From a phage: a stretch of 28,420 nucleotides of DNA. Within the stretch, counting starts at the first letter, position 1, and every line of letters starts with the position of its first letter. A program made the translations under genes and the position numbers. Under the pieces are notes generated by a model, which saw nothing but the letters and a program-made list of their open reading frames with translations, did no database searches and was not told where the DNA came from. Positions 952-22,433 of this stretch are shown piece by piece. Location of the stretch: NCBI GenBank assembly GCA_014816205.1, contig GCA_014816205.1_4096.1. The stretch is one strand, 5' to 3'.

Positions 952-980
952 GTTCATCAACCTCACATTTATTTTCAATA

Positions 981-1220: not shown

Positions 1221-1221
1221 G

Positions 1222-1876: not shown

Positions 1877-2088
1877 ATTTTGGATACCACCTTGTTACGT
1901 AAGGAACTTAATAATACGTCAGTGTAGATGTTTTGATAGTTTGTCCCTACGAATACACCCAACTTCATTTCAGCTATTATAACACATTTGTCCTCTTGTG
2001 CAATAGATTTGTTTAACACAATACTATACACTTTTGATTTGATAGTTTGTAACCTCCAATGATACTGATACTCATTAAGGATTATCAT
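1873..2088 (-). CDS. small protein, paralog family 1
   Basis: ORF track; motif FVGTNYQNIYT; ATGA overlap. Confidence 0.6.
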   Translation of the reverse strand: MIILNEYQYHWRLQTIKSKVYSIVLNKSIAQEDKCVIIAEMKLGVFVGTNYQNIYTDVLLSSLRNKVVSKI

Positions 2089-2335
2089 TCTCTTTCCTCC
2101 AGATTTCGGTTCTCATGTGTTGGCAGTGTGCATCAATATATTGCTCTATCGATCTGGCGATTGCTGTTTTATCAGTGCCTGTCATCAGTACAAGCATCTC
2201 GGCCTCACAGTGAAGTAAACGCATGATATCATAGGGTAATATTTCAGATACCGTGTCATAGTGTTTCTGTGCCAGTGTCTGCAATAGTTTACAATACATT
2301 TTGTGATTTAGTCTTTGTCGCATTGTTTCTTCCAT
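2075..2335 (-). CDS. small protein, divergent member of paralog family 1
   Basis: ORF track; degenerate motif LMTGTDKTAIARS; start uncertain (alternative ATG at 2323). Confidence 0.45.
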   Translation of the reverse strand: MEETMRQRLNHKMYCKLLQTLAQKHYDTVSEILPYDIMRLLHCEAEMLVLMTGTDKTAIARSIEQYIDAHCQHMRTEIWRKENDNP

Positions 2336-2580
2336 TCTCTTCTGGCTTGGCGGGTTTTATCTGATATTTCGTTTCTCAATGCAGAGATATATCGTAGAGT
2401 GAACAGTTCTTGATAGTTAGTCCCTATGAATTTATTAAGATATACATCAGCGTTGACGATATCAGCTTCACGGGAATTATAAAGTTTATTGTTAGTGCGA
2501 AGGGTGTTTAGAAGAGAGAAGAGGGCAGTCTGATACTCAGTGCTTGATAAAGTTTTCATATTTTTCCACAATTCGTTCAT
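2308..2580 (-). CDS. small protein, paralog family 1
   Basis: ORF track; motif FIGTNYQELFT; start uncertain (alternative ATG at 2559, MKTLSSTEY). Confidence 0.5.
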   Translation of the reverse strand: MNELWKNMKTLSSTEYQTALFSLLNTLRTNNKLYNSREADIVNADVYLNKFIGTNYQELFTLRYISALRNEISDKTRQARREWKKQCDKD

Positions 2581-2734
2581 TTAGTTTTATCTGTATAAGA
2601 TCCATTAGTTGTTCAAGATAATCGGTACAATATTTCTCTTGATATTGGGTTCCCACAAAGTACAGCAACCATAGCTCATGAACTTTAACTTTCATCTCGT
2701 TCCATGAAAGTGCATCGTCCGTCAAGTGTTTCAT
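2537..2734 (-). CDS. small protein, paralog family 1
   Basis: ORF track; motif FVGTQYQEKYC. Confidence 0.55.
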   Translation of the reverse strand: MKHLTDDALSWNEMKVKVHELWLLYFVGTQYQEKYCTDYLEQLMDLIQIKLNERIVEKYENFIKH

Positions 2735-2889
2735 TTACATTTATCCCTTATTAGATTTGTGAGTGCAACTATGTGTTCATGGATATAAAAATTTTGATGA
2801 GAAGTTCCAAGAAAGTACAGCATCCATCCCTCACTCTGCTCGACTTCTAGTTTAGTATCGAGTTGGTCAGATATGTTAATGAAAACCAT
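2731..2889 (-). CDS. small protein (52 aa), paralog family 1; absent from ORF track
   Basis: Hand translation codon by codon: MVFINISDQLDTKLEVEQSEGWMLYFLGTSHQNFYIHEHIVALTNLIRDKCK; ATG overlaps upstream stop; TGA overlaps start of 2537..2734. Confidence 0.5.
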   Translation of the reverse strand: MVFINISDQLDTKLEVEQSEGWMLYFLGTSHQNFYIHEHIVALTNLIRDKCK

Positions 2890-3113
2890 TAGTTCTTTTC
2901 CTTTCTTTCTATTTGTTTCATAAGAACATCGATATACTCACCCGCAAACCTATTCTGATACTGCGTCCCCATGAATTCCAACATCCATACTTCAGCAACC
3001 TTTTCTTCAATTTCAGTCCATTGTAAGTACATCATAGTGAAGTAAATGGTGTTCTCTTTTTTTCTGGCACTCTTAGCACGGGCCTCGTATTCAAAGTTAT
3101 TAATGATGTTCAT
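2889..3113 (-). CDS. small protein, paralog family 1
   Basis: ORF track 2889..3146 trimmed to ATG at 3113 (track M1 is a TTG); motif FMGTQYQNRFA. Confidence 0.5.
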   Translation of the reverse strand: MNIINNFEYEARAKSARKKENTIYFTMMYLQWTEIEEKVAEVWMLEFMGTQYQNRFAGEYIDVLMKQIERKEKN

Positions 3114-3327
3114 TACATTTGTCCATAATGTAATTCTTGAGTGCAACTATGTGTGCAATAACATACTCTTCCTGGAAGTTCGTCCCCAGTACAGCCAACA
3201 TGCGTACATCGGTGGTGTTTATCTTGTGTTCCAATCGAGTTAAACCTTTTATTTGTAAAAGGGTATCGTATTTGTTTAATGCATCAATGATAATTCTCAT
3301 CTTCTCAATATTACTTAAATGTTTCAT
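3100..3327 (-). CDS. small protein, paralog family 1
   Basis: ORF track; motif VLGTNFQEEYV. Confidence 0.6.
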   Translation of the reverse strand: MKHLSNIEKMRIIIDALNKYDTLLQIKGLTRLEHKINTTDVRMLAVLGTNFQEEYVIAHIVALKNYIMDKCNEHH

Positions 3328-3536
3328 AGTTTACTCTTAATGTAGTTCTGAAGTTCAATTAAGTATTTCCCTACATAATACTCCTGAAAGTCTGTATCCA
3401 AAAATGCACCCATAAGTAAATCCTTCTCCATTGCCCTTGATAAGTTAAGGTCTGCATTTGAAAGGTATATAAGTAATATTTCAGTCTGGACAGAATTAAA
3501 ACGTTTCTTATATTCTTCAGGTGTTAATATAATCAT
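3324..3536 (-). CDS. small protein, paralog family 1
   Basis: ORF track; motif FLDTDFQEYYV; ATGA overlap. Confidence 0.6.
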   Translation of the reverse strand: MIILTPEEYKKRFNSVQTEILLIYLSNADLNLSRAMEKDLLMGAFLDTDFQEYYVGKYLIELQNYIKSKL

Positions 3537-3748
3537 AATTTGCTCCTGATGTATTTCTCAAGAGATGACAAATACTTTTCCTCATAATACTCCTGATAGT
3601 CTGTTCCCAAGAATGCACCCAAAAGTATTTCATTTTCCAATACCTCGGCTAAGTTTAAATCAGACGTCTCTTCGTATATTATGAGGATTTCAAGTTGTCT
3701 GGCAGCGATGCGTTCAGTATATTGATATGAGTTTTCTATAATAATCAT
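3533..3748 (-). CDS. small protein, paralog family 1
   Basis: ORF track; motif FLGTDYQEYYE; close paralog of 3324..3536. Confidence 0.6.
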   Translation of the reverse strand: MIIIENSYQYTERIAARQLEILIIYEETSDLNLAEVLENEILLGAFLGTDYQEYYEEKYLSSLEKYIRSKL

Positions 3749-3954
3749 ATTTTACTCTTAATATCTTCTATTAAAAATCGAATCCATTCTTCAACATAAT
3801 CTTCCTGATGGTTTGTGTTCAGTACAGCCAACATGCGGATCTCTGCTCTTGCAACTTCAATTTCAGTTTTAGGCAGGTCTTTGCTGATATCCACCATTAA
3901 GTCCATGTATTTCAAGATAAGACCGTATGATTGGGTTCGTGTTATAGTTTTCAT
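3745..3954 (-). CDS. small protein, paralog family 1
   Basis: ORF track; motif VLNTNHQEDYV. Confidence 0.6.
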   Translation of the reverse strand: MKTITRTQSYGLILKYMDLMVDISKDLPKTEIEVARAEIRMLAVLNTNHQEDYVEEWIRFLIEDIKSKI

Positions 3955-4151
3955 TGTTTCCTCGTGGACAATATTTTATTTTTCAATGTATCCATATATT
4001 GCCACACCCATCTACCCTGATAGTTTGTTCCCAATGTAATCAAAAGGTATAACTCCATTCGTTCTACGTGTGTGTCTGTGTTGTAAATCTTTACGTAGTT
4101 TTTACGTAACAGTGATTGATATTCTTCTTTATTTAAAATACGCATTTTCAT
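3951..4151 (-). CDS. small protein, paralog family 1
   Basis: ORF track; N-terminus MKMRILNKEEY; motif TLGTNYQGRWV. Confidence 0.6.
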   Translation of the reverse strand: MKMRILNKEEYQSLLRKNYVKIYNTDTHVERMELYLLITLGTNYQGRWVWQYMDTLKNKILSTRKQ

Positions 4152-4345
4152 AGTTTACTCGTTATATCTTCAATTAAATACCAAATCCAATCGTTGACAT
4201 ACCTTTCCTGAAAGTTAGTTCCAATGAATAGTGCCATAATTAATTCACGCTTATAGGCAATACCACGGTCATGGGACTTATACATTATCATAGCCATGTT
4301 ATTGATAAGTCTTTCGTGGTGCTGTTCTTTAGTTAAAATACGCAT
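4148..4345 (-). CDS. small protein, paralog family 1; first gene of the array
   Basis: ORF track 4148..4375 trimmed to ATG at 4345 with AAGGGAG 5 nt upstream; motif FIGTNFQERYV. Confidence 0.6.
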   Translation of the reverse strand: MRILTKEQHHERLINNMAMIMYKSHDRGIAYKRELIMALFIGTNFQERYVNDWIWYLIEDITSKL

Positions 4346-4375
4346 AGGGACTCCCTTAAAATTAATATCAATCAT

Positions 4376-5696: not shown

Positions 5697-5844
5697 TTTG
5701 AATCTCCTAACTTTGTGGACCGTCGCACCATTGCCGCCCTACGAGATACATTATTGCAGTACTGATATACTTTGTCAATACTTTTTATTAATAGTTTTCA
5801 CTCCACCAGCAGATAGTTACTCACCGTTATTAACTATATATTTT

Positions 5845-5930
5845 AGATACACCTATGCACCCTGTGGGCTAGTTTTTGTCTATGCGTATATAATAGCAAA
5901 GGGACTGACCGGAGTCAATCCCTTTTTTAT
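5845..5930. repeat. composite intergenic repeat, copy 1 (19-nt motif + terminator hairpin)
   Basis: tgcaccctgtgggctagt about 5857-5874; hairpin gggactgaccggagtcaatccc 5901-5922 followed by tttttt. Confidence 0.6.
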
Positions 5931-5939
5931 TCTTTTTTG

Positions 5940-6140
5940 TTAGATGATTCTCCAATCTTCTACGATGATTGTAAGATACCGGACCAACGATTCTAGTGAT
6001 TCGTGTTCTCGATAGTCTGCCGCTCCACCAGCGGTACAAGTACAGCCGATTAAACCATTTTGCAATTCCTTAATCTGTACATCGATAAGGTTGGCTTTAG
6101 CTTCTTTCAGTACTTCAACCAGGGCGAGAGCGATAGACAT
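5940..6140 (-). CDS. hypothetical protein (66 aa)
   Basis: ORF track; GGAG upstream. Confidence 0.55.
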   Translation of the reverse strand: MSIALALVEVLKEAKANLIDVQIKELQNGLIGCTCTAGGAADYREHESLESLVRYLTIIVEDWRII

Positions 6141-6230
6141 AATGTTTTACTCCAAACTATTGGCGGGAGAACTATTCCCCCGCTCTATGTAAAACATTAT
6201 ACATTACTGGTTAGTACTGTCAAATAGTTT
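6141..6230 (-). promoter_or_regulatory. PeSL-like promoter/hairpin cassette
   Basis: Minus strand TTGACA, 16 bp, TATAAT, then hairpin GCGGGGGAATAGTTCTCCCGC. Confidence 0.5.
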
Positions 6231-6488
6231 TTATGAAATATCTTCGATGTAGTCGGCCCATTTCATTTTTTCAGTACTGTCAATTGCTACCGGATTATTT
6301 GGATCAAACCATTCACCATTACCGCAGTACATACCAACGGCAACGGTTTTATAGCCATCCTGGGCAGTACTCCACGCCATCGCACGATAGATATGGCCTT
6401 TAACTGGTTGCAGTACTGGTAACGTTTTATGGTCTTCTACGTAGGCCATAGCTTGAGGATTTACCCGATATTGTGTGAATTGTTCCAT
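6231..6488 (-). CDS. hypothetical protein (85 aa)
   Basis: ORF track 6231..6521 trimmed to ATG at 6488 with AGGGGA upstream. Confidence 0.55.
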   Translation of the reverse strand: MEQFTQYRVNPQAMAYVEDHKTLPVLQPVKGHIYRAMAWSTAQDGYKTVAVGMYCGNGEWFDPNNPVAIDSTEKMKWADYIEDIS

Positions 6489-6563
6489 GATGTTTCCCCT
6501 TGTAGTTAGTAAAGTTATCATATCAGTACTATCAAGCTATGTCAATAGTACTGAAATAAAACT

Positions 6564-6788
6564 TTAGATTAGATTATTGATGCCGTTGATGGTAGACTCG
6601 CTTTCTTCTTTCTCCCATTGGCGGTAGTACTTCCATGCTTCATGATATGTGGCGATTAGTTCATCTTTTTGATCCTGAGTACATGCCAGTACTGAATCAC
6701 GATGAGCGGTGTTATAGATAGAATCGAATGATTTCTTCTCTTCTGCCAGGTTAGCTACTTCCCGCATCAGTTCATCAAAGTTAGCCAT
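6564..6788 (-). CDS. hypothetical protein (74 aa)
   Basis: ORF track; AAGGAG upstream; starts MA. Confidence 0.6.
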   Translation of the reverse strand: MANFDELMREVANLAEEKKSFDSIYNTAHRDSVLACTQDQKDELIATYHEAWKYYRQWEKEESESTINGINNLI

Positions 6789-6852
6789 TTTAGTACTCCT
6801 TTTAGTGGGGGAGGATATCTCCCCCTATGCAAAACATTATACTTTGTTTTAG
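6789..6852 (-). promoter_or_regulatory. PeSL-like promoter/hairpin cassette
   Basis: Minus strand TTGCAA...TATAAT then hairpin GGGGGAGATATCCTCCCCC. Confidence 0.5.
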
Positions 6853-7119
6853 TTACTTTGCAAGTACTTTTTTCATATAAAGATTATATTCTACACCGCC
6901 GTAACCTTCTAAGATGATATGTTTTGCGTTATCACGTTTGCACATAGTGAAACCGTTGTTGATGTGTTCTGCATTTTCCAGGGCTACATCACCGATTGCA
7001 GCACATACAGCACTTACAACGGTATTCCGCAAAGTACTGGTATCATTAGCGGTCATAGTAGTTTGCAGTACTACGTTGTCGTATACGTGTGCATTGATAG
7101 TGATTTCGATAGTGTTCAT
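6853..7119 (-). CDS. hypothetical protein (88 aa)
   Basis: ORF track. Confidence 0.55.
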   Translation of the reverse strand: MNTIEITINAHVYDNVVLQTTMTANDTSTLRNTVVSAVCAAIGDVALENAEHINNGFTMCKRDNAKHIILEGYGGVEYNLYMKKVLAK

Positions 7120-7205
7120 GGTGTATCTCCCGGACTGGCGGGAGAACTATTCCCCCGCTCTATGTAAAACATTATACGTTAATCTAACTACAATGCAAGT
7201 ACTTT
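7120..7205 (-). promoter_or_regulatory. PeSL-like promoter/hairpin cassette
   Basis: gcgggagaactattcccccgc hairpin plus RC of TATAAT and TTGCAT. Confidence 0.5.
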
Positions 7206-7397
7206 TTAAATTTTATTTCCGATATAGTCCGGTCTATTCTTTTCGGTCATACGCTTTGCTAATGTTTGCATATGGCTTATTGCGTTTAATGTGTCTTCCT
7301 CCAGGGATGAATCAACATAATCAGGATCATTCTTAACCTTGCAATGGTTATGATAGCGTAGTACTGCCAGTACTTTTTTAACTTCTTCAACTGTCAT
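7206..7397 (-). CDS. hypothetical protein (63 aa)
   Basis: ORF track; ATGA overlap with 7394.. gene. Confidence 0.55.
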   Translation of the reverse strand: MTVEEVKKVLAVLRYHNHCKVKNDPDYVDSSLEEDTLNAISHMQTLAKRMTEKNRPDYIGNKI

Positions 7398-7666
7398 AAT
7401 AAGTATTCCACTTCGTTAGCTTTCAGGTTAGTATCAATCATCAGTGGATTTTTGTAGTTCACAAAACGATTAGTTTTCTCGATAGCGAATCCCATATAAT
7501 CCAGCTTACTAACAGTACATTCATTCTTAAAAACTTCTTTCGCTGCATTGATGGCTGATTCAATTGATAACCGACCATCTAAGTTAATGTTTCCAAATGA
7601 TCCACCAGCAGAAGTAGGATTACCGTTCATATCTTTAATGATCATAGTAGCGGAGTAGCTAGACAT
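7394..7666 (-). CDS. hypothetical protein (90 aa)
   Basis: ORF track. Confidence 0.6.
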   Translation of the reverse strand: MSSYSATMIIKDMNGNPTSAGGSFGNINLDGRLSIESAINAAKEVFKNECTVSKLDYMGFAIEKTNRFVNYKNPLMIDTNLKANEVEYLL

Positions 7667-7750
7667 AATTTTGTTTCCTTTTAGTATCGGGGAGAACTAT
7701 TCTCCCCTTGATGTAAACTATTATACAGTACTAAGATACTTTGTCAATAC
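7667..7750 (-). promoter_or_regulatory. PeSL-like promoter/hairpin cassette
   Basis: ggggagaactattctcccc hairpin; minus strand TTGACA, 16 bp, TATAAT; 3' part shared with cassettes at 10524 and 10795. Confidence 0.55.
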
Positions 7751-7972
7751 TTAATTACGTTTAAAATGATATGTGCCTTTATCATCCTGTACGCCCCATA
7801 CTGATTTACCATCAACACCAGTGAAACCGGATTGTAATTCAATATGGAAACCATTATTATCAACTACAAAAACTTTTTTATTTTCATCCCGATAACATTG
7901 ATATTCTGAATCAACATTAAAGGCCGCATCATTCAGAAGATTGGAAGCGTAAATGCAAGTCATTGTAGTCAT
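7751..7972 (-). CDS. hypothetical protein (73 aa)
   Basis: ORF track 7751..8047 trimmed to ATG at 7972 with AAGGA upstream; track N-terminus is the translated hairpin. Confidence 0.55.
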   Translation of the reverse strand: MTTMTCIYASNLLNDAAFNVDSEYQCYRDENKKVFVVDNNGFHIELQSGFTGVDGKSVWGVQDDKGTYHFKRN

Positions 7973-8107
7973 GATTTTATTCCTTATTGCCAGGGAGAAC
8001 CATTTCCCCCTCTCGATATAAAACATTATACTTGATTCTAAGTACAATGCAAGTACTTTTTATCAAATACTTTAAAATAGTTTTCAGTACTGAATACTTA
8101 TATAATA

Positions 8108-8197
8108 GATACACTTATGCACCCTGTGGGTCAGTGAGTTATCTCTCAATGAATATATATTAGCAAAGGGACTGACCGGAGTCAATCCCTTTTTTAA
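8108..8197. repeat. composite intergenic repeat, copy 2
   Basis: tgcaccctgtgggtcagtg 8118-8136; hairpin gggactgaccggagtcaatccc 8168-8189 plus tttttt. Confidence 0.6.
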
Positions 8198-8203
8198 TCT
8201 TTT

Positions 8204-8788
8204 TTATCGTGTTATAGTTACGGCTTTTACATCACGCTTTTTATAGTACTGATTCCAGATATTGCGGGTTAAACCGTAATCAAGTACTTTAATAAGTCCA
8301 TTACGATCCTGGCCGATATTCTGTTTTCTGATATCTCTTATCGTTAGTGTTGATAATGTATCATCGACGTGTTGTAGTGCATCAGCAAAGCGGTGCTGGC
8401 GTTCAATGGCATTACGTTTAATATTGTACTTTAATTCGTTGCACGCGTTAACGTGCTTCACACTGCCTTTACTTGCAGTACTCAACCGATCCATAACGAT
8501 AAACATATTATCAGGATCGCATAAATGCATATGCACCTTTGCAAAGTACTGTTTCAATTGAGGGCGGTCATAGTCTAAAAAATTCCATACCTTACATTCA
8601 GTTTCATTTTGTTCTACACCCGCATCACAATTGGCGACCTTAATCACTAACCGATCATTTAAAGCGAATACAATACGGGAAGAACCCGCACCGATGATCT
8701 CCAGACCAGCTAACCGACAAGCTGAAAGGATCTCTTTGTTGGTTTCCATTTCTGACAGGGTACGGATGAATTTAGTATAATTACGCAT
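8204..8788 (-). CDS. minimal protein-kinase-like protein (194 aa)
   Basis: ORF track 8204..8845 trimmed to ATG at 8788 with AAGGAG upstream; motifs IGAGSSRIVF (Gly loop), VIKVA (Lys), IRDIRKQNIG (catalytic loop), KVLDYGL (DFG-like). Confidence 0.55.
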   Translation of the reverse strand: MRNYTKFIRTLSEMETNKEILSACRLAGLEIIGAGSSRIVFALNDRLVIKVANCDAGVEQNETECKVWNFLDYDRPQLKQYFAKVHMHLCDPDNMFIVMDRLSTASKGSVKHVNACNELKYNIKRNAIERQHRFADALQHVDDTLSTLTIRDIRKQNIGQDRNGLIKVLDYGLTRNIWNQYYKKRDVKAVTITR

Positions 8789-8819
8789 TGCATGTTCTCC
8801 TTGAGTTAATGAAACTATC

Positions 8820-9062
8820 TTACAGTACTTTACTATCAATGGCAACCACTTTTTTCACACTAACCGCGTGAATCACTTCCTTAGTGTTTTTAGTACTGAA
8901 TACTTTCGCTGTTCCATGTTCTACTGCAATGCGATAACGACCGTTAACATCAACCATATTAATAAAGTCCGGTGTACTAAACCGAGTAGTACGGCATTTC
9001 AGTACTGTTAACAGTTCCACCAGCGATGTAGTTTCTTTGATACGTTTTTCTAAAGTAATCAT
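8820..9062 (-). CDS. hypothetical protein (80 aa)
   Basis: ORF track 8820..9119 trimmed to ATG at 9062; track N-terminus MTVLKCF... is the translated promoter region. Confidence 0.55.
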   Translation of the reverse strand: MITLEKRIKETTSLVELLTVLKCRTTRFSTPDFINMVDVNGRYRIAVEHGTAKVFSTKNTKEVIHAVSVKKVVAIDSKVL

Positions 9063-9119
9063 TTTGTTTTCCCCGTGTTGGTATGTACATATAGTACTAA
9101 AACATTTGAGTACTGTCAA

Positions 9120-9338
9120 TTAGATAATTGCATATTTCTTTAAAGATAATGCGTCTTGGGTTGGCTGATACTCAATGCCGTTACCGTTATCTACTTTAAC
9201 TAATAAACCTTTGTCAATTAGTTTTTTAATAGTCCTTTGGCCTTGTTGAAAATTGGTAAAATGTGAATCATTACGAAAGGTATAACCGTGCTTAACTGCT
9301 TCATCAATAGTTTTCTTTTCGATTTTAGATAATTTCAT
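9120..9338 (-). CDS. hypothetical protein (72 aa)
   Basis: ORF track 9120..9395 trimmed to ATG at 9338; same promoter-module artefact as 8820 gene. Confidence 0.55.
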   Translation of the reverse strand: MKLSKIEKKTIDEAVKHGYTFRNDSHFTNFQQGQRTIKKLIDKGLLVKVDNGNGIEYQPTQDALSLKKYAII

Positions 9339-9391
9339 TTTGTTTCTCCCGTGTTGGTATGTGTACATAATACTAAAACAATTGAGTACTG

Positions 9392-9646
9392 TCAACGTGA
9401 TATTAGTTTTATTTTCTTATTATATTGTTGATGTTCATAAAGGTTTATCTTTCCTGTGTTCTCTATTACTATTCTGTTGTTAGTGTCTACATCGATTACA
9501 CGCAGTTTTCCGTTGCTTAACTTCCTTGGTAATAGGTTACCATTAATAAACTCATTAGCAAGCTGTACGGCCTTTGTGATGATTCTCTGTGGTGCTTTAT
9601 AGTGTACCCGCAAGATATTATCTTTAGATAGTTGTACCTTAATCAT
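9392..9646 (-). CDS. hypothetical protein (84 aa)
   Basis: ORF track; AGGAT upstream. Confidence 0.55.
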   Translation of the reverse strand: MIKVQLSKDNILRVHYKAPQRIITKAVQLANEFINGNLLPRKLSNGKLRVIDVDTNNRIVIENTGKINLYEHQQYNKKIKLISR

Positions 9647-9661
9647 TTTAGTTTATCCTAT

Positions 9662-9686
9662 AAAAAAGGCGGGAACTGATCCCGCC
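9662..9686 (-). terminator. rho-independent terminator
   Basis: Hairpin ggcgggaactgatcccgcc 9668-9686 followed on minus strand by TTTTTT; immediately downstream of 9709.. gene. Confidence 0.65.
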
Positions 9687-9708
9687 GTGTTGTTAGTACT
9701 GCAAGTTA

Positions 9709-10104
9709 TTAGATAACCTGGCGGCGTTTACTGTATACTGTTACACGATTACCCTTACGGTCGTGTCGGATCTCTTTCTGGTTGCGTACCAGTTCACTTG
9801 GACGCTTAAGGTTTGCCAGGTGATCCGCGTGAGTCCAAGCGGTATGGTTTGTCTGTACTTTGATATCAGAATCAGCGATAAATTCATCTTGTGCGTTAAG
9901 TACTGCCGCCAGTAAATCCGCTCGTTTTAGTTCTGCTGCTGTTAGTACTGGCTCCGGTGAATTCACAATATCAGAGATTTCTTTGAACTGTACGGCCCAG
10001 CGTTGGCCTTTCGGTGCATCTTTGCCCATGTCTTTAAATGCTGCTCCTTCCTCGCGTGCAACAATACGGGCAGCTTCACGGGTAGCGTAGAATTTAGTAA
10101 TCAT
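9709..10104 (-). CDS. hypothetical protein (131 aa); paralog of 22751..23014
   Basis: ORF track trimmed to ATG at 10104 with AGGA 8 nt upstream; shares KFYATREAARI...FKDMG and RKGNRVTVY with 22751 gene. Confidence 0.6.
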   Translation of the reverse strand: MITKFYATREAARIVAREEGAAFKDMGKDAPKGQRWAVQFKEISDIVNSPEPVLTAAELKRADLLAAVLNAQDEFIADSDIKVQTNHTAWTHADHLANLKRPSELVRNQKEIRHDRKGNRVTVYSKRRQVI

Positions 10105-10199
10105 GGTATACATCCTATTAGTTAAGTTAGTACTACAAGTTAGAGTCTATTATAAAGTACTATCTGGGCAATGTCAAATAGTACTTTAAATGGATTCTA

Positions 10200-10523
10200 T
10201 TACATATCTTTCTTACGTTTTACATCGTAGTATCGAACTGTTATTTCTTTGTTAATCTCTTTTTCGATGCGGTGAATAACTTTTTCTTTCGGGTTGAAAC
10301 CTATAACGGTTTCTTTAATGATCTCCAAGCCCGTGTATTCGCCTTGTGTGCCGTAACCGTATGTAAAGGTTTCATGTCCCAGGTCTTCCCAACGATCACC
10401 AATTAACGCAGACACGTAGCAAGAGTGGTAAGTATTGCCGTGTGAATCAGTCCACCGATTAACTTTAATGTCAAAGGAGGTTACAATTTTCAGTTCTACT
10501 TTCTGGGCAAGGATCATAGCCAT
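10200..10523 (-). CDS. hypothetical protein (107 aa); paralog of 16617..16940
   Basis: ORF track trimmed to ATG at 10523; shares RWTDSxGNTYHSC and FTYGY and KRKKD with 16617 gene. Confidence 0.6.
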   Translation of the reverse strand: MAMILAQKVELKIVTSFDIKVNRWTDSHGNTYHSCYVSALIGDRWEDLGHETFTYGYGTQGEYTGLEIIKETVIGFNPKEKVIHRIEKEINKEITVRYYDVKRKKDM

Positions 10524-10616
10524 TTTTATTTCTCTCTCTTTGTTAGGAGGGGAACCGTTTCCCCTCACTTGATGTAAACTATTATACAGTACTAAGATAC
10601 TTTGTCAATACTTATT
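10519..10616 (-). promoter_or_regulatory. PeSL-like cassette, near-identical direct repeat of 10790-10886
   Basis: About 95 bp matching the cassette at 10790-10886 except in the hairpin arms. Confidence 0.6.
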
Positions 10617-10794
10617 TTTTGGAAAGTTTACGCATTAATTCTACGCTTTCTTGTGAACGTTTTGCTACCTGGCAAGCTGCATGGACAGTAAACATTTTTG
10701 TATAGTCTGACGGTTTGTCACCGAACCGAGCGGCACGTTCACGGGCACTTGGAACTAATACGATTTCTTTCTTACAGATAGTGCATTTAGCCAT
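10612..10794 (-). CDS. small Cys-containing protein (60 aa), possible zinc-binding
   Basis: ORF track; CTIC...HAAC pattern. Confidence 0.5.
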   Translation of the reverse strand: MAKCTICKKEIVLVPSARERAARFGDKPSDYTKMFTVHAACQVAKRSQESVELMRKLSKK

Positions 10795-10886
10795 TTTTAT
10801 TTCTCTCTCTTTGTTAGGAGGGGAACCATTCCCCCTCTCGATGTAAACTATTATACAGTACTAAGATACTTTGTCAATACTTAATT
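10790..10886 (-). promoter_or_regulatory. PeSL-like cassette, direct repeat of 10519-10616
   Basis: Minus strand TTGACA...TATAAT, hairpin GGGGAATGGTTCCCC, leader AACAAAGAGAGAGAAATAAAAATG. Confidence 0.6.
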
Positions 10887-11156
10887 ATTGTAAATGTCGT
10901 GAATAGTGATAAAGTTTTTACGACCGTAAACCTGCAAATCAATATCAATGTAGTGCTTATCTAGTACATCCTCGACGCTTAACGCGGTGTCGTGGATATC
11001 TTCGTAGAATTGAGGATCTACAATCTTGCTTAAGTCATCCGGCGTTAACTCATCGTTAAGCCGTTGAACCGCCTGGATATCTGCTTCACGTTTCCAGTCT
11101 TCCAGGTTAGTAGTCAGTACTTGTTCGATTTCGTTAGCTGTCAGTAGAATCCGCAT
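10881..11156 (-). CDS. hypothetical acidic protein (91 aa)
   Basis: ORF track. Confidence 0.55.
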   Translation of the reverse strand: MRILLTANEIEQVLTTNLEDWKREADIQAVQRLNDELTPDDLSKIVDPQFYEDIHDTALSVEDVLDKHYIDIDLQVYGRKNFITIHDIYNN

Positions 11157-11225
11157 TTTAATGTTTCCTTATCAGTGGTTGATGTAAGTATTATACTCGT
11201 TTACTTTCTATTGTCAAACTATTTT

Positions 11226-11298
11226 ATCAGGGGAGGTTTTCTTATGTCTTACTCCTGGACTACTTAACGGGGTTACTTGTTTCGTTCCCCGTCCTGAT
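11226..11298 (-). promoter_or_regulatory. structured leader element, copy 1
   Basis: Closing stem ATCAGG/CCTGAT enclosing hairpin ACGGGG...CCCCGT; sits between two tandem minus-strand promoters. Confidence 0.4.
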
Positions 11299-11379
11299 GT
11301 AAAACATTATACTTGATTCTAAGTACAATGCAAGTACTTTTTTAAAAATAGTTTTCAGTACTAGCCACCAGCAAACAAT

Positions 11380-11466
11380 AGATACATTTATGCACCCTGT
11401 GGGCTGATTTGTTTCTATGCGTATATAATAGCAAAGGGACTGACCGGAGTCAATCCCTTTTTCAAT
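11380..11466. repeat. composite intergenic repeat, copy 3
   Basis: tgcaccctgtgggctgatt 11391-11409; hairpin 11436-11457 plus ttttt. Confidence 0.6.
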
Positions 11467-11471
11467 TATTT

Positions 11472-11621
11472 TTAAACTTGTTTCGGGTTGCGATAGGTGA
11501 TAGCGTTCGGGTACATTTGTTTAATGTTATTCCATGCCTGGTTAACATTGTAACCACTTGAGCGAATCAGTTGGTTGCTACCGACACCTTGAAACACTAC
11601 TTCGAATAAGAATTCTTTCAT
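11472..11621 (-). CDS. small protein (49 aa), absent from ORF track
   Basis: Hand translation codon by codon: MKEFLFEVVFQGVGSNQLIRSSGYNVNQAWNNIKQMYPNAITYRNPKQV; start overlaps upstream TGA. Confidence 0.45.
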   Translation of the reverse strand: MKEFLFEVVFQGVGSNQLIRSSGYNVNQAWNNIKQMYPNAITYRNPKQV

Positions 11622-11791
11622 GCTTTCACCTCGCTATCTGCTTTACCTTTACGCCAGGACATTACTAATTGTTCGCGTTGCCATAAGTCGAGTGATACAA
11701 AAAGTTTTGCGGTATCACTTTTAGGATACTCGCCATTAGTACCTAACCGATAAAACAGATCTTTCAGTACTGATAATTCTACTTGAATCAT
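11618..11791 (-). CDS. small protein (57 aa), absent from ORF track
   Basis: Hand translation: MIQVELSVLKDLFYRLGTNGEYPKSDTAKLFVSLDLWQREQLVMSWRKGKADSEVKA; ATGA overlap with upstream gene. Confidence 0.45.
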   Translation of the reverse strand: MIQVELSVLKDLFYRLGTNGEYPKSDTAKLFVSLDLWQREQLVMSWRKGKADSEVKA

Positions 11792-11880
11792 TTTATTACT
11801 CCTGATTGCGTTAATACTTCTACTATTGCATGAATGATCATAAGTACAGCTAAAACAATAATCATCGGATTCATTTGCAT
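11788..11880 (-). CDS. small hydrophobic peptide (30 aa), absent from ORF track
   Basis: Hand translation: MQMNPMIIVLAVLMIIHAIVEVLTQSGVIK; AAGGAG 8 nt upstream; first of three coupled small genes. Confidence 0.4.
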   Translation of the reverse strand: MQMNPMIIVLAVLMIIHAIVEVLTQSGVIK

Positions 11881-11897
11881 AAGCTGTACTCCTTATA

Positions 11898-12110
11898 TTA
11901 ATCTTTCAGCCAATGATCCTGAATGAATTTTTCGCCGGAACCTTGCTGCATTGTTTGTAACAGACGTTCACGATGAGCGGCGGCGAATTGCTCAGTACTA
12001 TGCGTTACGCCAGGCTGATAACGTGATACCCCATCCGGTCCGATGTATTGTACATCCCACGGTTTAGCGTTAGTATCAGACCATTTACGAACGATTAGTT
12101 GACCTTGCAT
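11898..12110 (-). CDS. hypothetical protein (70 aa)
   Basis: ORF track; GAGAGGAAAG upstream. Confidence 0.6.
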   Translation of the reverse strand: MQGQLIVRKWSDTNAKPWDVQYIGPDGVSRYQPGVTHSTEQFAAAHRERLLQTMQQGSGEKFIQDHWLKD

Positions 12111-12195
12111 TTTTCTTTCCTCTCAGTGGGGAGAATCATTTCTCCCCTTCATGTAACTTATTATACAGTACTATAATCTATTGTCAAATACTTTT
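12111..12195 (-). promoter_or_regulatory. PeSL-like promoter/hairpin cassette
   Basis: ggggagaatcatttctcccc hairpin; minus strand TTGACA...TATAAT. Confidence 0.5.
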
Positions 12196-12384
12196 TTAAA
12201 GTTTATGAATCAATTCTTTATCTAAGCGATAGCGTACATTATTAATGGTAACAGCATTATTTTTAATGCTACGCTGTACAGGTCCACCAGCAATAACAAA
12301 TGTTGCTTTATTACCCCGAACAATGATAGCACTTCCAGGATTACCGAAATCATCTTGTACTAAAATACTTGATAAGTTTTCCAT
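12196..12384 (-). CDS. hypothetical protein (62 aa)
   Basis: ORF track 12196..12390 trimmed to second ATG (12384), which has GAGGA at proper spacing. Confidence 0.55.
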   Translation of the reverse strand: MENLSSILVQDDFGNPGSAIIVRGNKATFVIAGGPVQRSIKNNAVTINNVRYRLDKELIHKL

Positions 12385-12462
12385 TTTCATTTCCTCTTAG
12401 TAGGGGAAGATGTTTCCCCTTGATGTAAGTACTATAACACTACTGAAAACTAAATGCAAGTA

Positions 12463-12819
12463 CTATGATAAAATCATGATAGGATATTCACTATCGATCA
12501 GTACCTCGAATCCGAAACCTTCGTACCATTCTTTAAGATTGAAGGCGTTATCTTCTCCTGTATCGCATTCTAAAATGATACAATCTGAATCATCGGCGGC
12601 ATCAATAAAGGCATTCATTAATTCGTTACCTTCACCATTGCCCCGACTATCAGGATCAACATAAAGAGAATCAATAAACGCTACACGGTCATAATCAAGA
12701 TCCGGTGCAATGATTCCACGTTTAACAAACCAGTACTGCAATTGTGCTACTTTGCCCTGTACTTGATAACCAGTGATCTCGCCATTGTCAGTAGTACGCG
12801 TGATATGTTGTATTCCCAT
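12463..12819 (-). CDS. GNAT-family acetyltransferase-like protein (118 aa)
   Basis: ORF track; RGNGEG resembles the acetyl-CoA-binding motif and WYEGFGFE the C-terminal GNAT motif; GAGGA upstream. Confidence 0.5.
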   Translation of the reverse strand: MGIQHITRTTDNGEITGYQVQGKVAQLQYWFVKRGIIAPDLDYDRVAFIDSLYVDPDSRGNGEGNELMNAFIDAADDSDCIILECDTGEDNAFNLKEWYEGFGFEVLIDSEYPIMILS

Positions 12820-12882
12820 GATTTCTATCCTCAGTTAAGATATAAAACATTATACACTATCTTTCAGTACTGTCAATACTTT

Positions 12883-13140
12883 TTATCTCATAGATCTATG
12901 CCAACAATTACGCGGGGGACGTTTAAAAGTACTATCATGATCCTCCTGGCAAGTTATGCAGTACTTACATCCCTTAACGGCCTGGCGTCGTTTCTCAGGG
13001 ATTATATCGCCGCAGTCGAGGCAATGTATCAGTGATTCTATTTGTGCGTTAATTTGCTTTCTAGCGTGGTTAACGGCGGCCTGAATCACTGCGTTGATCT
13101 CGTCTTGTTCGGCCCCGTCTTTCGCGTATCCTACTGCCAT
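12883..13140 (-). CDS. TraR/DksA-family C4 zinc-finger protein (85 aa)
   Basis: ORF track; CLDCGDIIPEKRR...CKYCITCQ matches the CxxC-x17-CxxC TraR/DksA zinc-finger pattern. Confidence 0.55.
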   Translation of the reverse strand: MAVGYAKDGAEQDEINAVIQAAVNHARKQINAQIESLIHCLDCGDIIPEKRRQAVKGCKYCITCQEDHDSTFKRPPRNCWHRSMR

Positions 13141-13471
13141 TATTTTAACCTCATTATAAAAATACTATAGTACTGTAATGCGACAATAATATTACTTGTT
13201 CTTACTTTTTCCAATCCACATGATACCACATATTCATCCCCATATGTGCGAAACGATACACCATGAAAATTTTTATACACTTGCACTACTAATCATAACC
13301 TTTCGTCTAACCAACTGCATAGAATTATACTACTTTACGCAAATTGATCAAGTATTGATCAGATCATTTTTTGATCAATATTATACAGTTACATTTGTGC
13401 ACCCTATGGGTTAGTGACGTTCTCGTCTTGATGTAAGTATTATGCCAGTACTGGATGATATTGTCAATAGA

Positions 13472-13669
13472 TTATTTTAATTTTTTTCTGTCATTGATTA
13501 ATGCTTTCAGTACTATACTAATGATTTGCAATGATTCATCAATGACTATAAAATTATTCTCTTTCATTAGATGATAGTTACCATTGATTGTATATTCTAA
13601 GGAGTACTGTTTACGTTTAATTTTTGATAATGTTTCTATTTGTTTTTGTACTGATTTCATGCTAATCAT
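13472..13669 (-). CDS. hypothetical protein (65 aa)
   Basis: ORF track; AGGA 9 nt upstream. Confidence 0.55.
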   Translation of the reverse strand: MISMKSVQKQIETLSKIKRKQYSLEYTINGNYHLMKENNFIVIDESLQIISIVLKALINDRKKLK

Positions 13670-13774
13670 TGTTAAACGTCCTGTAACGCATTCTAACGAG
13701 ATAAACGGTTTAGTACTGGCATTGTATAGGGTAATGAATTAAAGTCCACCAGCGTTAACCAGTGGGCTATAATC

Positions 13775-13918
13775 TTACATCTTGCGGATAATCTTAACAG
13801 TATCTTTCACCGATTTACCGTCCTGTTGACATTGTTCGATCATCGCGTATTGTTCTGCGGTCAGATCCTCGCCAGTTTTTGCCAGTACTGCGTCGATGAA
13901 TGAATCCAGTGCGATCAT
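13775..13918 (-). CDS. small protein (47 aa), absent from ORF track
   Basis: Hand translation: MIALDSFIDAVLAKTGEDLTAEQYAMIEQCQQDGKSVKDTVKIIRKM; AGAGAGAAATAAA leader; promoter cassette 13919-14017. Confidence 0.45.
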   Translation of the reverse strand: MIALDSFIDAVLAKTGEDLTAEQYAMIEQCQQDGKSVKDTVKIIRKM

Positions 13919-14017
13919 TTTATTTCTCTCTTAGGTTAAGTTAACTACTGTTTATAAAACTTATTATACAGTACTATCAAACGTTGTCAATATCTTTAAT
14001 AGTACTGGTAATATATT

Positions 14018-14197
14018 TTAGCGGTAATCGTCGTATGCTTTATTCACCTGGCGAATGTAACTTTCAAAGGCTTCGTCTACCGTTTCATACTCCCGAACAT
14101 AATCACCATAGGAAACTACATACATACCTTTTTGATCTTCAAACGACATGATGATAGAATCCAGGCCGATGATTTCAGTTTTTGCGATGATAGCCAT
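14018..14197 (-). CDS. hypothetical protein (59 aa)
   Basis: ORF track 14018..14260 trimmed to ATG at 14197 with AAGGA upstream. Confidence 0.55.
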   Translation of the reverse strand: MAIIAKTEIIGLDSIIMSFEDQKGMYVVSYGDYVREYETVDEAFESYIRQVNKAYDDYR

Positions 14198-14289
14198 TTT
14201 TAATTCCTTAGTAGTGTAGTTGATAAAAGTTATTATGCCAGTACTATCAATCAGTGTCAATAGCTTTGATAGTACTGTGATAATATTTT

Positions 14290-14502
14290 TTAGTTAATAA
14301 TAGTCAGTGTAAAATTGTAATCACCACAGCGATATAGCACGTTATTCCCAAATGTTCCAACTAATCGCACATCACACAAAACTCCGGTTTTTTCTTTTAC
14401 CTCCTTGATACTTGTAACTCCTGTAATATCTTTATTAAAGTATTCATGATCTGAAAATAAAACTTGTTTTGCATTTTTTAATTTCGACCGGATATTAGCC
14501 AT
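14290..14502 (-). CDS. hypothetical protein (70 aa)
   Basis: ORF track; start context AAAATGGCT. Confidence 0.6.
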   Translation of the reverse strand: MANIRSKLKNAKQVLFSDHEYFNKDITGVTSIKEVKEKTGVLCDVRLVGTFGNNVLYRCGDYNFTLTIIN

Positions 14503-14595
14503 TTTGTTTTCTCTCTGTTAGTGGGGAGAACTATTCTCCCCTTCATGTAAAACATTATACAGTACTATAATCTATTGTCAAACTATTTTTTAATA
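14503..14595 (-). promoter_or_regulatory. PeSL-like promoter/hairpin cassette (consensus example)
   Basis: Minus strand TTGACA, 16 bp, TATAAT, GTTTTACATGAAG, hairpin GGGGAGAATAGTTCTCCCC, then AGAGAGAAAACAAAATG. Confidence 0.6.
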
Positions 14596-14937
14596 TTATT
14601 CGAAATCTTCTGGACCGGACTGATAATCATCTTCACCGTATGCACTTTCTAACCGCTCGCCAGTTTGATCATCAGTTAGTGAGTCATCCTCATAGTTCAC
14701 GTCTACGCCTACAATGTAAAACTGGCTATCGTCTGGATCATTGAAATTAATTTTCTGAATGTTTACAATAACTGTATTGATGCCCAGGACACAGCCATCA
14801 GCCGTTACAAAGTACTGATATTTTTCACAACCGCCTGAATTGAAACCGTAATTGATTTCGGCCCGACCATCATTTAAACGCAGTGCCTGAGCGATGATTT
14901 CGTTTTCAAAGTTAGATTGAGCAATTGAGATAGTCAT
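14596..14937 (-). CDS. hypothetical protein with acidic C-terminus (113 aa)
   Basis: ORF track; AAGGA upstream. Confidence 0.6.
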   Translation of the reverse strand: MTISIAQSNFENEIIAQALRLNDGRAEINYGFNSGGCEKYQYFVTADGCVLGINTVIVNIQKINFNDPDDSQFYIVGVDVNYEDDSLTDDQTGERLESAYGEDDYQSGPEDFE

Positions 14938-15071
14938 GATTCGTTTCCTTATTACCAGGGGAAACCGTTTCCCCTTTCGATGTAAAACATTATACGCCTA
15001 TTGAGATAGTTTGCAAGTACTTTTTATCAAATACTTTAAAATAGTTTTCAGTACTCAAACATTATACAATA

Positions 15072-15160
15072 GATACACTCCTGCACCCTGTGGGCTAGTG
15101 AGCTATCTCTCAATGAATATATAATAGCAAAATGGCTGACCGAAGTCAACCACTTTTTTC
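15072..15160. repeat. composite intergenic repeat, copy 4 (variant hairpin)
   Basis: tgcaccctgtgggctagtg 15082-15100; hairpin tggctgaccgaagtcaacca 15133-15152 plus tttttt; arm changes preserve pairing relative to other copies. Confidence 0.55.
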
Positions 15161-15162
15161 AT

Positions 15163-15297
15163 TTATTTTTTAGCTTTAAGTACTGCGGCCTTTCGTGTCA
15201 TTCCTTGTTTGATGTACTCCTTTACTTTCGCTTTTTTAGCGTTTACCTTGTCTGCTTTCGTTTTAGGAGTACTGTAAATTATACCGTTAGGATTCAT
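15163..15297 (-). CDS. small Lys-rich protein (44 aa), absent from ORF track
   Basis: Hand translation: MNPNGIIYSTPKTKADKVNAKKAKVKEYIKQGMTRKAAVLKAKK; start overlaps upstream stop. Confidence 0.45.
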   Translation of the reverse strand: MNPNGIIYSTPKTKADKVNAKKAKVKEYIKQGMTRKAAVLKAKK

Positions 15298-16940: not shown

Positions 16941-16968
16941 TTTAGTATTCCTTAAATTAATATGTGTC

Positions 16969-17042
16969 GTCTTGATAAAATCTATTATGCCAGTACTATC
17001 AAACTATGTCAATAGTACTGTGATAATATTTTTACTTACTTT
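16969..17042 (-). repeat. about 74-bp direct repeat, copy A (promoter module)
   Basis: Identical to 17263-17336; contains RC of TTGACA and CATAAT. Confidence 0.65.
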
Positions 17043-17244
17043 CTTTTGATGCTTTATATGTTGCCACTGCCATAACCACATCAGCACGAACAAAGTTTTT
17101 AACCGTGTCAGTGTAGTAATTGATTGCATCGTCTACATCTGTGAACGTCCGATACATACCGCACCAAGATACTTTATAACCTTCTTTCACTTGTTCAAGT
17201 TTAACCAGTGTTTTGTTTACTTTAATTTTAGTAATGATAGCCAT
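17032..17244 (-). CDS. hypothetical protein (70 aa)
   Basis: ORF track. Confidence 0.6.
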   Translation of the reverse strand: MAIITKIKVNKTLVKLEQVKEGYKVSWCGMYRTFTDVDDAINYYTDTVKNFVRADVVMAVATYKASKESK

Positions 17245-17262
17245 TATTGTTTCCTCTTAGTT

Positions 17263-17336
17263 GTCTTGATAAAATCTATTATGCCAGTACTATCAAACTA
17301 TGTCAATAGTACTGTGATAATATTTTTACTTACTTT
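17263..17336 (-). repeat. about 74-bp direct repeat, copy B
   Basis: Identical to 16969-17042; the two copies flank the 17032..17244 gene. Confidence 0.65.
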
Positions 17337-17469
17337 TTTCTTTCTTAATTGCTTCCACCTGGTCGGCCCATTCTTTACCCCATACTTGTAAATTATAATG
17401 GTACTGGCAAAGAGCAACGCCCCGCTTTAAACCAGTAATAGATTTTGTACCACATTGACAAGTTTTCAT
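17326..17469 (-). CDS. small Cys-rich protein (47 aa), possible zinc ribbon; absent from ORF track
   Basis: Hand translation: MKTCQCGTKSITGLKRGVALCQYHYNLQVWGKEWADQVEAIKKEKSK; preceded by cassette 17470-17554. Confidence 0.45.
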   Translation of the reverse strand: MKTCQCGTKSITGLKRGVALCQYHYNLQVWGKEWADQVEAIKKEKSK

Positions 17470-19738: not shown

Positions 19739-19767
19739 TTGACAACTGCATCCAGTACTGGCATAAT
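19739..19767 (+). promoter_or_regulatory. plus-strand sigma70-like promoter
   Basis: ttgaca 19739-19744, 17-bp spacer, cataat 19762-19767; no plus-strand ORF follows. Confidence 0.45.
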
Positions 19768-19773
19768 TACTAC

Positions 19774-22413: not shown

Positions 22414-22433
22414 TGTAAAGATTTGTAAACTGA

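Follow-up and report, generated by a model that had tools for sequence, protein, structure and literature searches.

Does the hairpin that recurs between the small genes of this phage early region serve the strand that carries the genes or the opposite one, and what is the sequence motif beside it? The question is raised by a 28,420-nt stretch of DNA (GenBank assembly GCA_014816205.1, contig GCA_014816205.1_4096.1; hereafter the window), which comes from a jumbo coliphage of the genus Asteriusvirus and corresponds to its early region, a terminal repeat of ~21 kb whose genes lie on the minus strand. A first-pass annotation described here a five-copy composite repeat of a 19-nt motif, an A/T-rich segment and a hairpin followed by a plus-strand T-run, and read the whole as a terminator that strongly stops plus-strand (antisense) read-through, with at most a weak action on the minus strand. 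We find that the hairpin is a terminator-type structure of the gene-strand RNA, and that its DNA doubles as the next promoter. The motif is no part of a terminator; it forms the core of a transcribed ~50-nt 5′ leader.

Each repeat copy joins the end of a minus-strand gene to a promoter

All five copies of the repeat are present (at about 5845–5930, 8108–8197, 11380–11466 and 15072–15160, with a rearranged copy at 22320–22430), and a repeat search groups them into families D18–D20. The hairpin core TTGACTYCGGTCAG, read on the minus strand, has four exact occurrences, compared with 0.16 expected for matches with up to two mismatches, and the motif core CCCAYAGGGTGC occurs nine times with at most one mismatch against 0.07 expected. 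The copies do lie just 3′ of minus-strand genes, as had been described: each begins 7–23 nt past the stop codon of an open reading frame (ORF), with stops at 5940, 8204, 11472, 15163 and 22434. The minus-strand hairpin of copy 1 (AAAGGGAUUGAC-UCCG-GUCAGUCCCUUU, 5898–5925) follows the stop of ORF 5940–6140 by 15 nt; those of copies 2 (8165–8192) and 3 (11433–11460) each stand 12 nt past a stop, of ORF 8204–8845 and of a 49-aa ORF (11472–11621), respectively; that of copy 4 (AAAGUGGUUGAC-UUCG-GUCAGCCAUUUU, 15129–15156), whose stem is compensated, is 7 nt past a 44-aa ORF (15163–15297); and that of copy 5 (GCCAGUAUUGAC-UUAUUUU-GUCAAUACUGGC, 22380–22410), a perfect palindrome, is 23 nt past ORF 22434–22664.

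Copy 1, taken on the minus strand, contains the sequence AAAAAAGGGATTGACTCCGGTCAGTCCCTTTGCTATTATATACGCATAG. The −35 box TTGACT lies within the 5′ arm of the hairpin and the first base of its loop, and the loop and 3′ arm make up a 17-bp spacer. The sequence TATATAAT of the A/T-rich segment is a TG-extended −10 box TATTAT read backwards, and the plus-strand T-run becomes, once the minus strand is read, an A-tract upstream of the −35 box. This promoter, P1, occupies 5890–5918 in copy 1, with the A-tract at 5926–5943, and its transcript is predicted from the spacing to start near 5883. P1 of copy 2 (8157–8185), read directly from the sequence, has the same TTGACT and 17-nt spacer and a TG-extended TAATAT (8162–8157); a promoter scan placed the equivalent minus-strand promoters of copies 3 (11425–11453) and 4 (15121–15149), both with TG-extended TATTAT, and of copy 5 (22375–22403), with TG-extended CATAAT. 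The promoters of copies 1, 3 and 4 score 10/12. In all five copies the spacer falls within the 16–18 bp of sigma-70 promoters, and the TG takes positions −15/−14 of an extended −10. By spacing, the sigma-70 start would be the A of CAT(T/A)G, about 7 nt past the −10 box.

Selection acts on the gene-strand RNA of the hairpin

The two strands of the hairpin DNA do not fold equally well as RNA. Copies 1 and 2 fold at −21.2 kcal/mol on the minus strand versus −15.1 kcal/mol on the plus strand, copy 3 at −21.3 versus −13.4 kcal/mol, and copy 4 at −16.3 versus −6.4 kcal/mol, its plus-strand fold being no better than shuffles (z = −1.35). The minus-strand hairpins, at −16 to −21 kcal/mol, have z-scores of −5 to −6.7; copy 5 folds at −23.5 and −22.9 kcal/mol on the two strands. 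Where the minus strand has a U·G wobble the plus-strand stem has a C·A mismatch, and copy 4 adds a second such position. The arm substitutions of copy 4, previously cited as a sign of maintained pairing, are real and are found in phage 121Q too. Pairing is indeed kept in full on the minus strand, with G·U wobbles, whereas the plus strand acquires its second C·A mismatch; thus, the compensatory changes preserve the helix only in minus-strand RNA. The minus-strand loops, UCCG or UUCG, are UNCG tetraloops.

The repeat element, taken over 108 nt, recurs at 72–80% identity in RaK2, K64-1, GAP32, CBB, Serratia BF and jumbo phages of Erwinia, Yersinia and Salmonella. We drew a wider sample of loci from RaK2-like jumbo phages and from IMG/VR, covering about seven genera. 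Together, the window and these relatives yielded 81 distinct motif-bearing promoters. In 50 of them a stable hairpin spans the −35 box and spacer, and of these hairpins 49 fold more stably as the sense RNA and none as the antisense (mean −16.1 versus −10.0 kcal/mol); the sense folds contain 86 G·U pairs that become C·A mismatches if read on the plus strand, and UNCG loops stand on the sense strand in 30 of the 50. Around an invariant TTGAC the stems covary (GGGA/TCCC, GTAC/GTAC, GGGG/CCCC, AAGG/CCTT, GTGG/CCAT). A same-strand ORF ends within 30 nt upstream of 47 of 48 hairpin-type promoters (median 7 nt), as against 6 of 29 hairpin-less ones. The records of phages G17 and GAP32 annotate the same sites on the gene strand, as ARNold terminators or as stem-loops, and the homolog of copy 1 is an annotated ARNold terminator in G17.

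These results bear out selection for pairing in a terminator-type hairpin and reverse the strand that had been assigned to it: what the first-pass annotation treated as a minor, minus-strand role is the one on which selection acts. A terminator working mainly on the plus strand would find some support in the clean T6–T7 run after the hairpin on that strand, in the −13 to −15 kcal/mol that copies 1–3 still reach there, and in the convergent promoter pairs of relatives, whose transcripts would meet hairpins in antisense. Such a terminator is nevertheless very unlikely, being at odds with the near-uniform excess of sense-strand stability, with the G·U pairs and tetraloops that are correct on the sense strand only, with copy 4, which is weakest and at shuffle level on the plus strand, and with the placement of the hairpins after sense-strand gene ends; moreover, the T-run is accounted for by the A-tract upstream of the −35 box. 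No strong plus-strand promoter is aimed at copies 1–4. Of the leader-type strong plus-strand promoters (19739, 22231, 24129 and 24344), every one is situated to the right of these copies and directed away from them, so that plus-strand termination there is unneeded. Some termination of plus-strand transcripts at copies 1–3, for example in vitro, could still occur, given their fold energies and the T6 run.

The hairpin could also be a DNA palindrome rather than an RNA signal, serving as the operator of a dimeric repressor that silences the early promoters. An inverted repeat centred on the −35 box and spacer is in a typical operator position, and another palindrome, CAGTACTG, occurs in the spacers of other promoters of the window (37 times versus 0.32 expected). 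A protein site would conserve sequence, however, and here the arms vary between copies and genera while pairing is kept; the G·U-type imperfections on one strand only, the UNCG tetraloops and the tight link to upstream gene ends likewise speak against an operator, which we judge highly improbable.

Several observations weigh against efficient termination on the gene strand. On the minus strand the hairpin is followed by UUUGCUAUU, and the U-tract there, UUUGCUAUUAU, is interrupted, with at least 5 U in the 8-base scan window; our terminator scan called copies 1, 3 and 4 and passed over copy 2; the hairpin of copy 5 has no U-run on either strand; and the GAP32 annotators labelled several homologs 'stem_loop' only, whereas ARNold accepted those of G17. 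The literature searched holds no mapped transcript ends, start sites or pause sites for phages of this clade. Because of the interrupted U-tract, the uncalled copy 2 and the GAP32 labels, termination may be partial. A terminator and promoter sharing bases on the minus strand is nevertheless very likely the correct description of the architecture.

A conserved structured leader follows the promoters

The 19-nt motif is present in each repeat copy, as first described, and is not confined to them. In the window it also occurs on the plus strand, at 19796, 22281 and 24400, and on either strand it always lies 20–30 nt past the −10 box of a promoter that points the same way; including the relatives, a same-orientation promoter ends 20–30 nt before the motif in 81 of 81 distinct instances. 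Motif and hairpin do not make an inseparable composite, since 31 of these 81 promoters are without a hairpin. A covariance model of the leader built from 24 leaders detects 11 elements in the window, seven of them on the minus and four on the plus strand. In RaK2-like loci totalling 314 kb it detects 114, and in five unrelated contigs that match the search pattern by chance it detects none. A genome has about 10–20 copies.

The leader consists of two hairpins, H1 and H2, and a downstream segment. Its best-scoring window example is that of copy 2 (8101–8153, minus strand; 66.4 bits, E = 3e-16), a long form with H1 UGAG-AGAUAA-CUCA, H2 ACCC-ACA-GGGU and then GC-N5-UGUA; the leader of copy 4 (15065–15117, minus strand; 62.2 bits, E = 5e-15) is of the same form. 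In short forms H1 is reduced to 3 bp, as in copies 1 (5839–5880, minus strand, motif core 5857–5868; 37.9 bits, E = 3e-8) and 3 (11374–11421, minus strand; 32.4 bits, E = 1e-6). The leader of copy 5 (22320–22371, minus strand; 54.6 bits) is half of a convergent pair. A sixth minus-strand unit (13381–13467), missed by the first-pass annotation, has its leader at 13381–13432 (44.1 bits, E = 6e-10) and its promoter, TTGACA-17-CATAAT without a GC hairpin, at 13439–13467.

H1 lies between the predicted start and the motif, begins 2–3 nt after that start, and has a variable stem of 3–5 bp. There are 31 distinct stem pairs with fixed geometry and a 4-nt linker to H2, and the loops are conserved and purine-rich (GCGAAA in 16, AGAUAA in 10, GAGAAA in 8 and AGAACAA in 7). 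In an alignment of 105 distinct sequences, 95.5% of the H1 cells are paired and every one of the four pairs shows 34–43 double compensatory changes; the covariation of H1, 0.464, compares with 0.140±0.010 in shuffles and was reached by none of 500. An alignment made with a covariance model leans towards the modelled structure; the safer figure is therefore an unbiased count, by which 48 of 77 leaders have a stem of at least 4 bp, versus 23.1±3.4 in shuffles. For H2 (R-CCC, loop AYA, GGG-U) the share of paired cells is 99%; 64 sequences have A-U and 38 have G·U as the outer pair, and 103 have C-G and 2 have U-A as the inner pair. Set against the structural reading, in addition to the lean of the alignment, the near-invariance of H2 means that covariation barely tests its pairing, and the conservation of the AYA loop, of C at −9 and of the subsequent TCTAT is left unexplained. 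On this evidence the leader is quite probably a functional structured RNA.

It has no counterpart in the collections searched. At the gathering threshold Rfam 15 has no match in the window, and permissive Rfam scans of two elements gave at best 10–21 bits against thresholds of 38–167; blastn did not find the leader in 5,426 E. coli genomes, and its exact pattern had no match in 185,579 species genomes. None of the literature searched describes the motif string or the terminator-promoter overlap; the searches returned generic RpoD-like promoters, the ARNold terminators of CBB and unrelated primer matches instead.

Some further candidates were set aside. A long-range stem between AGAUA of the H1 loop and UAUCU after the motif, seen in single-sequence folds, is limited to the AGAUAA loop class and shows no covariation. 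Resemblances to a CsrA site, preQ1 and a sigma-54 promoter, judged by eye, mismatch at key positions. Most leaders are not stand-alone small RNAs, since a terminator-like hairpin lies within 100 nt downstream of only 9 of 55 non-convergent leaders. One candidate for a stand-alone small RNA of ~100 nt is the plus-strand unit at 19739–19885, antisense to the early genes: its promoter (19739–19767) and leader (19784–19825; 37.5 bits) are followed by a bidirectional terminator-like hairpin (19847–19869), promoter to hairpin spanning 19739–19869.

The leader resembles a hairpin-stabilised pause site

The E. coli consensus elemental pause is g−11 G−10 t−3 g−2 Y−1 G+1, with hairpins sought at RNA positions −50 to −11 (PMC11077087); a pause hairpin is separated from the pause by a 10-nt spacer, and G+1 is reported as the most important position (PMC9291695). 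Across 76 sequences, the 3′ half of the leader is free of indels. Counted from the closing U of H2, +1 and +2 are G and C in 77 of 77 leaders, +3 to +7 are variable, and these are followed by T at +8 (72/77), G at +9 (46/77), a pyrimidine at +10 (77/77) and a purine at +11 (77/77). In the register of a pause, the 4-bp H2 thus ends at −11, exactly 10 nt before the invariant Y, in line with the spacing (about 10–11 nt) and the stem length (at least 4 bp) expected of pause hairpins (PMC11077087, PMC9291695), and the conserved bases become G−10 (77/77), T−3 (72/77), G−2 (46/77) and Y−1 (77/77). The G−10 Y−1 G+1 consensus occurs 8 or 10 nt past H2 in 63 of 77 leaders versus 19.3±3.7 in local shuffles (maximum 31 in 1000).

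Two points count against a pause. The base at pause position +1 is A in 53 of 77 leaders and G in only 24, and a GGUG/YRYC helix is 92–100% compatible with the same columns; one of its sides is invariant, and its formation excludes H2. This helix is an unproven alternative to the pause. The conserved register suggests, and we tentatively favour, a hairpin-stabilised pause about 36–45 nt into the transcript that would leave H1 exposed, perhaps as a handle for a factor.

The motif CCCAYAGGGTGC might instead act as double-stranded DNA, as the site of a roadblock or repressor protein just past the start. Its near-invariant sequence (three pairs are C-G in 103–105 of 105 sequences) and its partial dyad symmetry, ACCC-N3-GGGT, are what such a site would show, and the rare double change CCT/AGG would also suit a symmetric protein site. 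This is quite unlikely in view of the orientation of the motif, which is locked to the promoter in 81 of 81 instances, of the clear RNA-type covariation of the adjoining H1, of the alternation between A-U and G·U in the outer pair of H2, and of the downstream conserved positions, which fit an asymmetric pause consensus in register.

The leader could also be a mere 5′-end stabiliser against RNase E or RppH, made of a hairpin and purines resembling a Shine-Dalgarno (SD) sequence, with no pausing or factor loading. H1 begins close enough to the predicted start for this, 2–3 nt past it; SD-like tetramers follow GGGUGC in 31 of 87 leaders versus 8.9±2.6 in shuffles; and 27 of 55 non-convergent leaders have a gene start within 150 nt downstream. 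Stabilisation requires no more than a stem, however, which leaves the invariant H2, the conserved H1 loops and the indel-free spacing to T-G-Y-R unexplained. Two thirds of the leaders are without an SD-like stretch, and some lie in convergent pairs or right before a terminator, with no gene to protect. We therefore consider a stabiliser on its own unlikely. In the copies of the window a second promoter lies 50–100 nt past the leader.

Convergent leaders and other promoter elements

In 16 of 71 cases a leader faces a second leader on the opposite strand, ~62–80 nt from start to start. In the window, the copy 5 leader (22371–22320, minus strand) faces a plus-strand unit at 22231–22310, made up of a TTGACA-17-TATAAT promoter (22231–22259) and a leader at 22269–22310 (25.2 bits, E = 1e-4). 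The transcript through this pair folds into a single long hairpin (−53.6 kcal/mol). Within 24129–24429 there are two more plus-strand units of promoter and leader, with leaders at 24162–24214 and 24378–24429; the first of these faces a degenerate minus-strand leader (24278–24224) near the inferred genome end. The three leader elements of this region score 17.4, 28.1 and 18.7 bits. One idea is that convergent pairs cause head-to-head pausing.

Face-to-face promoter-leader pairs recur across genera, at 22231–22410 and 24129–24278 in the window and in related loci at 985–1099 and 3795–3909 (L004), 3766–3880 and 6595–6709 (L003) and 754–885 (L029). Each is an imperfect palindrome of ~130–150 bp whose transcripts would fold into a hairpin of ~50 bp.

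Other recurrent elements accompany these promoters. Some leader promoters, in several genera, carry the sequence AATCTTTACAA 10–20 nt ahead of the −35 box (22412–22425 in the window; L002, L003 and L029–L031 among the related loci). The palindrome CAGTACTG, with 37 sites in the window (for example at 5757, 8085, 13446, 19753, 22245 and 24358), is often found in promoter spacers, immediately ahead of the −10 box (CCAGTACTGGCATAAT, CAGTACTGTATAAT), or follows leaders as TTCAGTACTGAAAA; it could be the signature of a promoter class or a site to which a protein binds. A second and commoner minus-strand promoter cassette has 16–22 copies in the window (repeat families D1–D7), including 6165–6239, 7140–7214, 7994–8068, 14958–15032, 20115–20189 and 23352–23442. 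It reads AAAAGTAC-TTGCAA/TTGACA-16-TATAAT-GTTTTACATC, followed by a conserved G+C hairpin (GGGGAGAAnnnTTCTCCCC), a ribosome-binding site and a start codon, and its 5′ untranslated region (UTR) hairpin is of a class distinct from the H1/H2 leader. Family D13 comprises four promoters without the leader motif (6499–6578, 14214–14293, 16966–17045 and 17260–17339; two copies are 98% identical), of the form TTGACA-17-CATAAT/TATGAT with TG and with the −35 box flanked by an inverted repeat, CAGTACTAT...ATAGTACTG.

Genome setting

The window is 90–98% identical to Asteriusvirus E. coli jumbo phages such as CRJP21, slurp01, G17, phAPEC6, PBECO4 and 121Q. Almost all of its ORFs are small and on the minus strand, and a scan of the window for tRNA and tmRNA genes found none. 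The copy 2 homolog of vB_Ec-M-J, at 17.3 kb, falls within an annotated direct terminal repeat (1–21525); by correspondence, the terminal repeat would extend over ~3.9–25.4 kb of the window. A repeat of ~21 kb has been confirmed experimentally by restriction mapping in fEgEco12 (PMC13070987). Sigma-70-type promoter-like sites number 115 in the window versus 68.7±8.4 in shuffles, are dense on the minus strand, and include a dozen perfect TTGACA-16/17-TATAAT. For the early region of CBB, RpoD-like promoters with UP-like elements have been reported, together with 74 predicted terminators genome-wide (PMC5259590).

An ORF-poor stretch of 1.6 kb (24100–25750) is kept in 42 related phages. It has ~11 tandem copies of an 8-bp unit (TAGCCGTC-like) at 24595–24685, repeats of 10–12 bp at 25406–25632, and promoters directed outward on the plus strand. 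Judged by alignment to vB_Ec-M-J, it should hold the physical genome end, or terminal-repeat boundary, and it may act as a signal for packaging, injection or replication. Outside the promoter-dense part of the window, small paralogous minus-strand genes of ~60–90 aa form two arrays (476–4375 and 26140–28340; repeat families D8, D11, D14 and D16).

Discussion

We consider it likely that, in the terminal-repeat region, each copy of the repeat works as a cassette that stops early minus-strand transcription and restarts it. Polymerase arriving from the upstream gene would transcribe a UNCG hairpin of 9–12 bp and then UUUGCUAUUAU, and the hairpin would end the upstream transcript, or at least attenuate it and protect its 3′ end. 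The same DNA would serve as a strong host sigma-70 promoter, with the A-tract as a UP-like element, from which transcripts would start ~7 nt past the −10 box and open with the ~50-nt leader: H1, a 4-nt linker, H2, and then G-C-N5-T-G/C-Y-R at strictly fixed spacing. H2 and the bases downstream may form a hairpin-stabilised promoter-proximal pause, ~36–45 nt from the start, at which the paused polymerase would be held with H1 exposed, so that a factor could load and modify the polymerase in the manner of nut or ops. Alternatively, the pause might meter traffic into the second promoter and the gene 50–100 nt downstream. A more specific and doubtful proposal is that the leader represents a new class of control element, peculiar to RaK2-like jumbo phages and acting close to the promoter: it would stall polymerase ~40 nt out and load a phage or host factor at the H1 loop, the factor would reprogramme elongation (for example, to read through terminators), and convergent pairs would become head-to-head roadblocks by which transcription is confined.

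The terminator and the promoter are ordinary in themselves, and the hairpins are already annotated as terminators in GenBank records. The ARNold terminators in the records of vB_EcoM_G17, GAP32 and UE-S1, like the 74 reported for CBB, are the same hairpins, on the gene strand and after small early genes. Those records do not mention that the hairpin includes a −35 box and spacer belonging to the following promoter, that one strand only is under selection for the structure, or that a conserved leader comes next; the overlap of terminator and promoter and the leader appear to be undescribed.

The host-takeover region of SPO1 and the first-step-transfer region of T5 hold many tiny early genes in a long terminal repeat, where strong host-sigma promoters are interspersed with terminators. 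The region studied here is alike in its many very small early genes, its long terminal repeat, and its strong promoters and terminators. We know of no report from SPO1 or T5 of terminators that share bases with the next promoter, nor, to our knowledge, has a dispersed, conserved, structured leader been reported after a subset of their promoters.

The putative pause is like class I pauses such as hisL and leuL in having a short RNA hairpin that ends at −11, followed by G−10, T−3, G−2 and Y−1 in register. Unlike hisL and leuL, the leader would place it 36–45 nt from the promoter, encodes no leader peptide, is present in 10–20 copies per genome and has A at +1 in two thirds of cases. Like lambda nut, HK022 put and ops/RfaH, the leader is promoter-proximal in early transcripts of a terminator-rich region, and its pause might act as a loading point, as at ops. 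H1 resembles boxB in being a small hairpin whose stem varies while its purine-rich loop is conserved, a resemblance of form only; its loops of 6–7 nt differ from the GNRA-like pentaloop of boxB, and the order of elements differs from that of nut, put and ops. BoxA (CGCUCUUA-like) occurs in none of 105 leaders, and near-matches in the window number 16 versus 15.1 expected, none of them within leaders. No N-, Q- or RfaH-like partner was identified; an N-like protein was not sought.

The 5′ UTR of E. coli ompA and the polypurine stabiliser at the 5′ end of early RNA of the Bacillus phage SP82 are 5′ mRNA stabilisers. What the leader has in common with them is a hairpin a few nucleotides from the 5′ end and, as part of an early phage transcript's leader, a run rich in purines; unlike them, the leader is conserved far beyond the needs of a protective stem, and its downstream spacing is fixed.

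In this compact arrangement, kept in at least seven phage genera, the stem and U-tract of a terminator use the same bases as the −35 box, spacer and −10 box of the promoter that follows; such an arrangement could be a model for packing insulated transcription units at high density. The leader, found only in this phage clade, offers a testable handle on how giant phages without an RNA polymerase of their own steer that of the host during the first minutes of infection and, if it is a true pause or loading site, would be a new example of elongation control.

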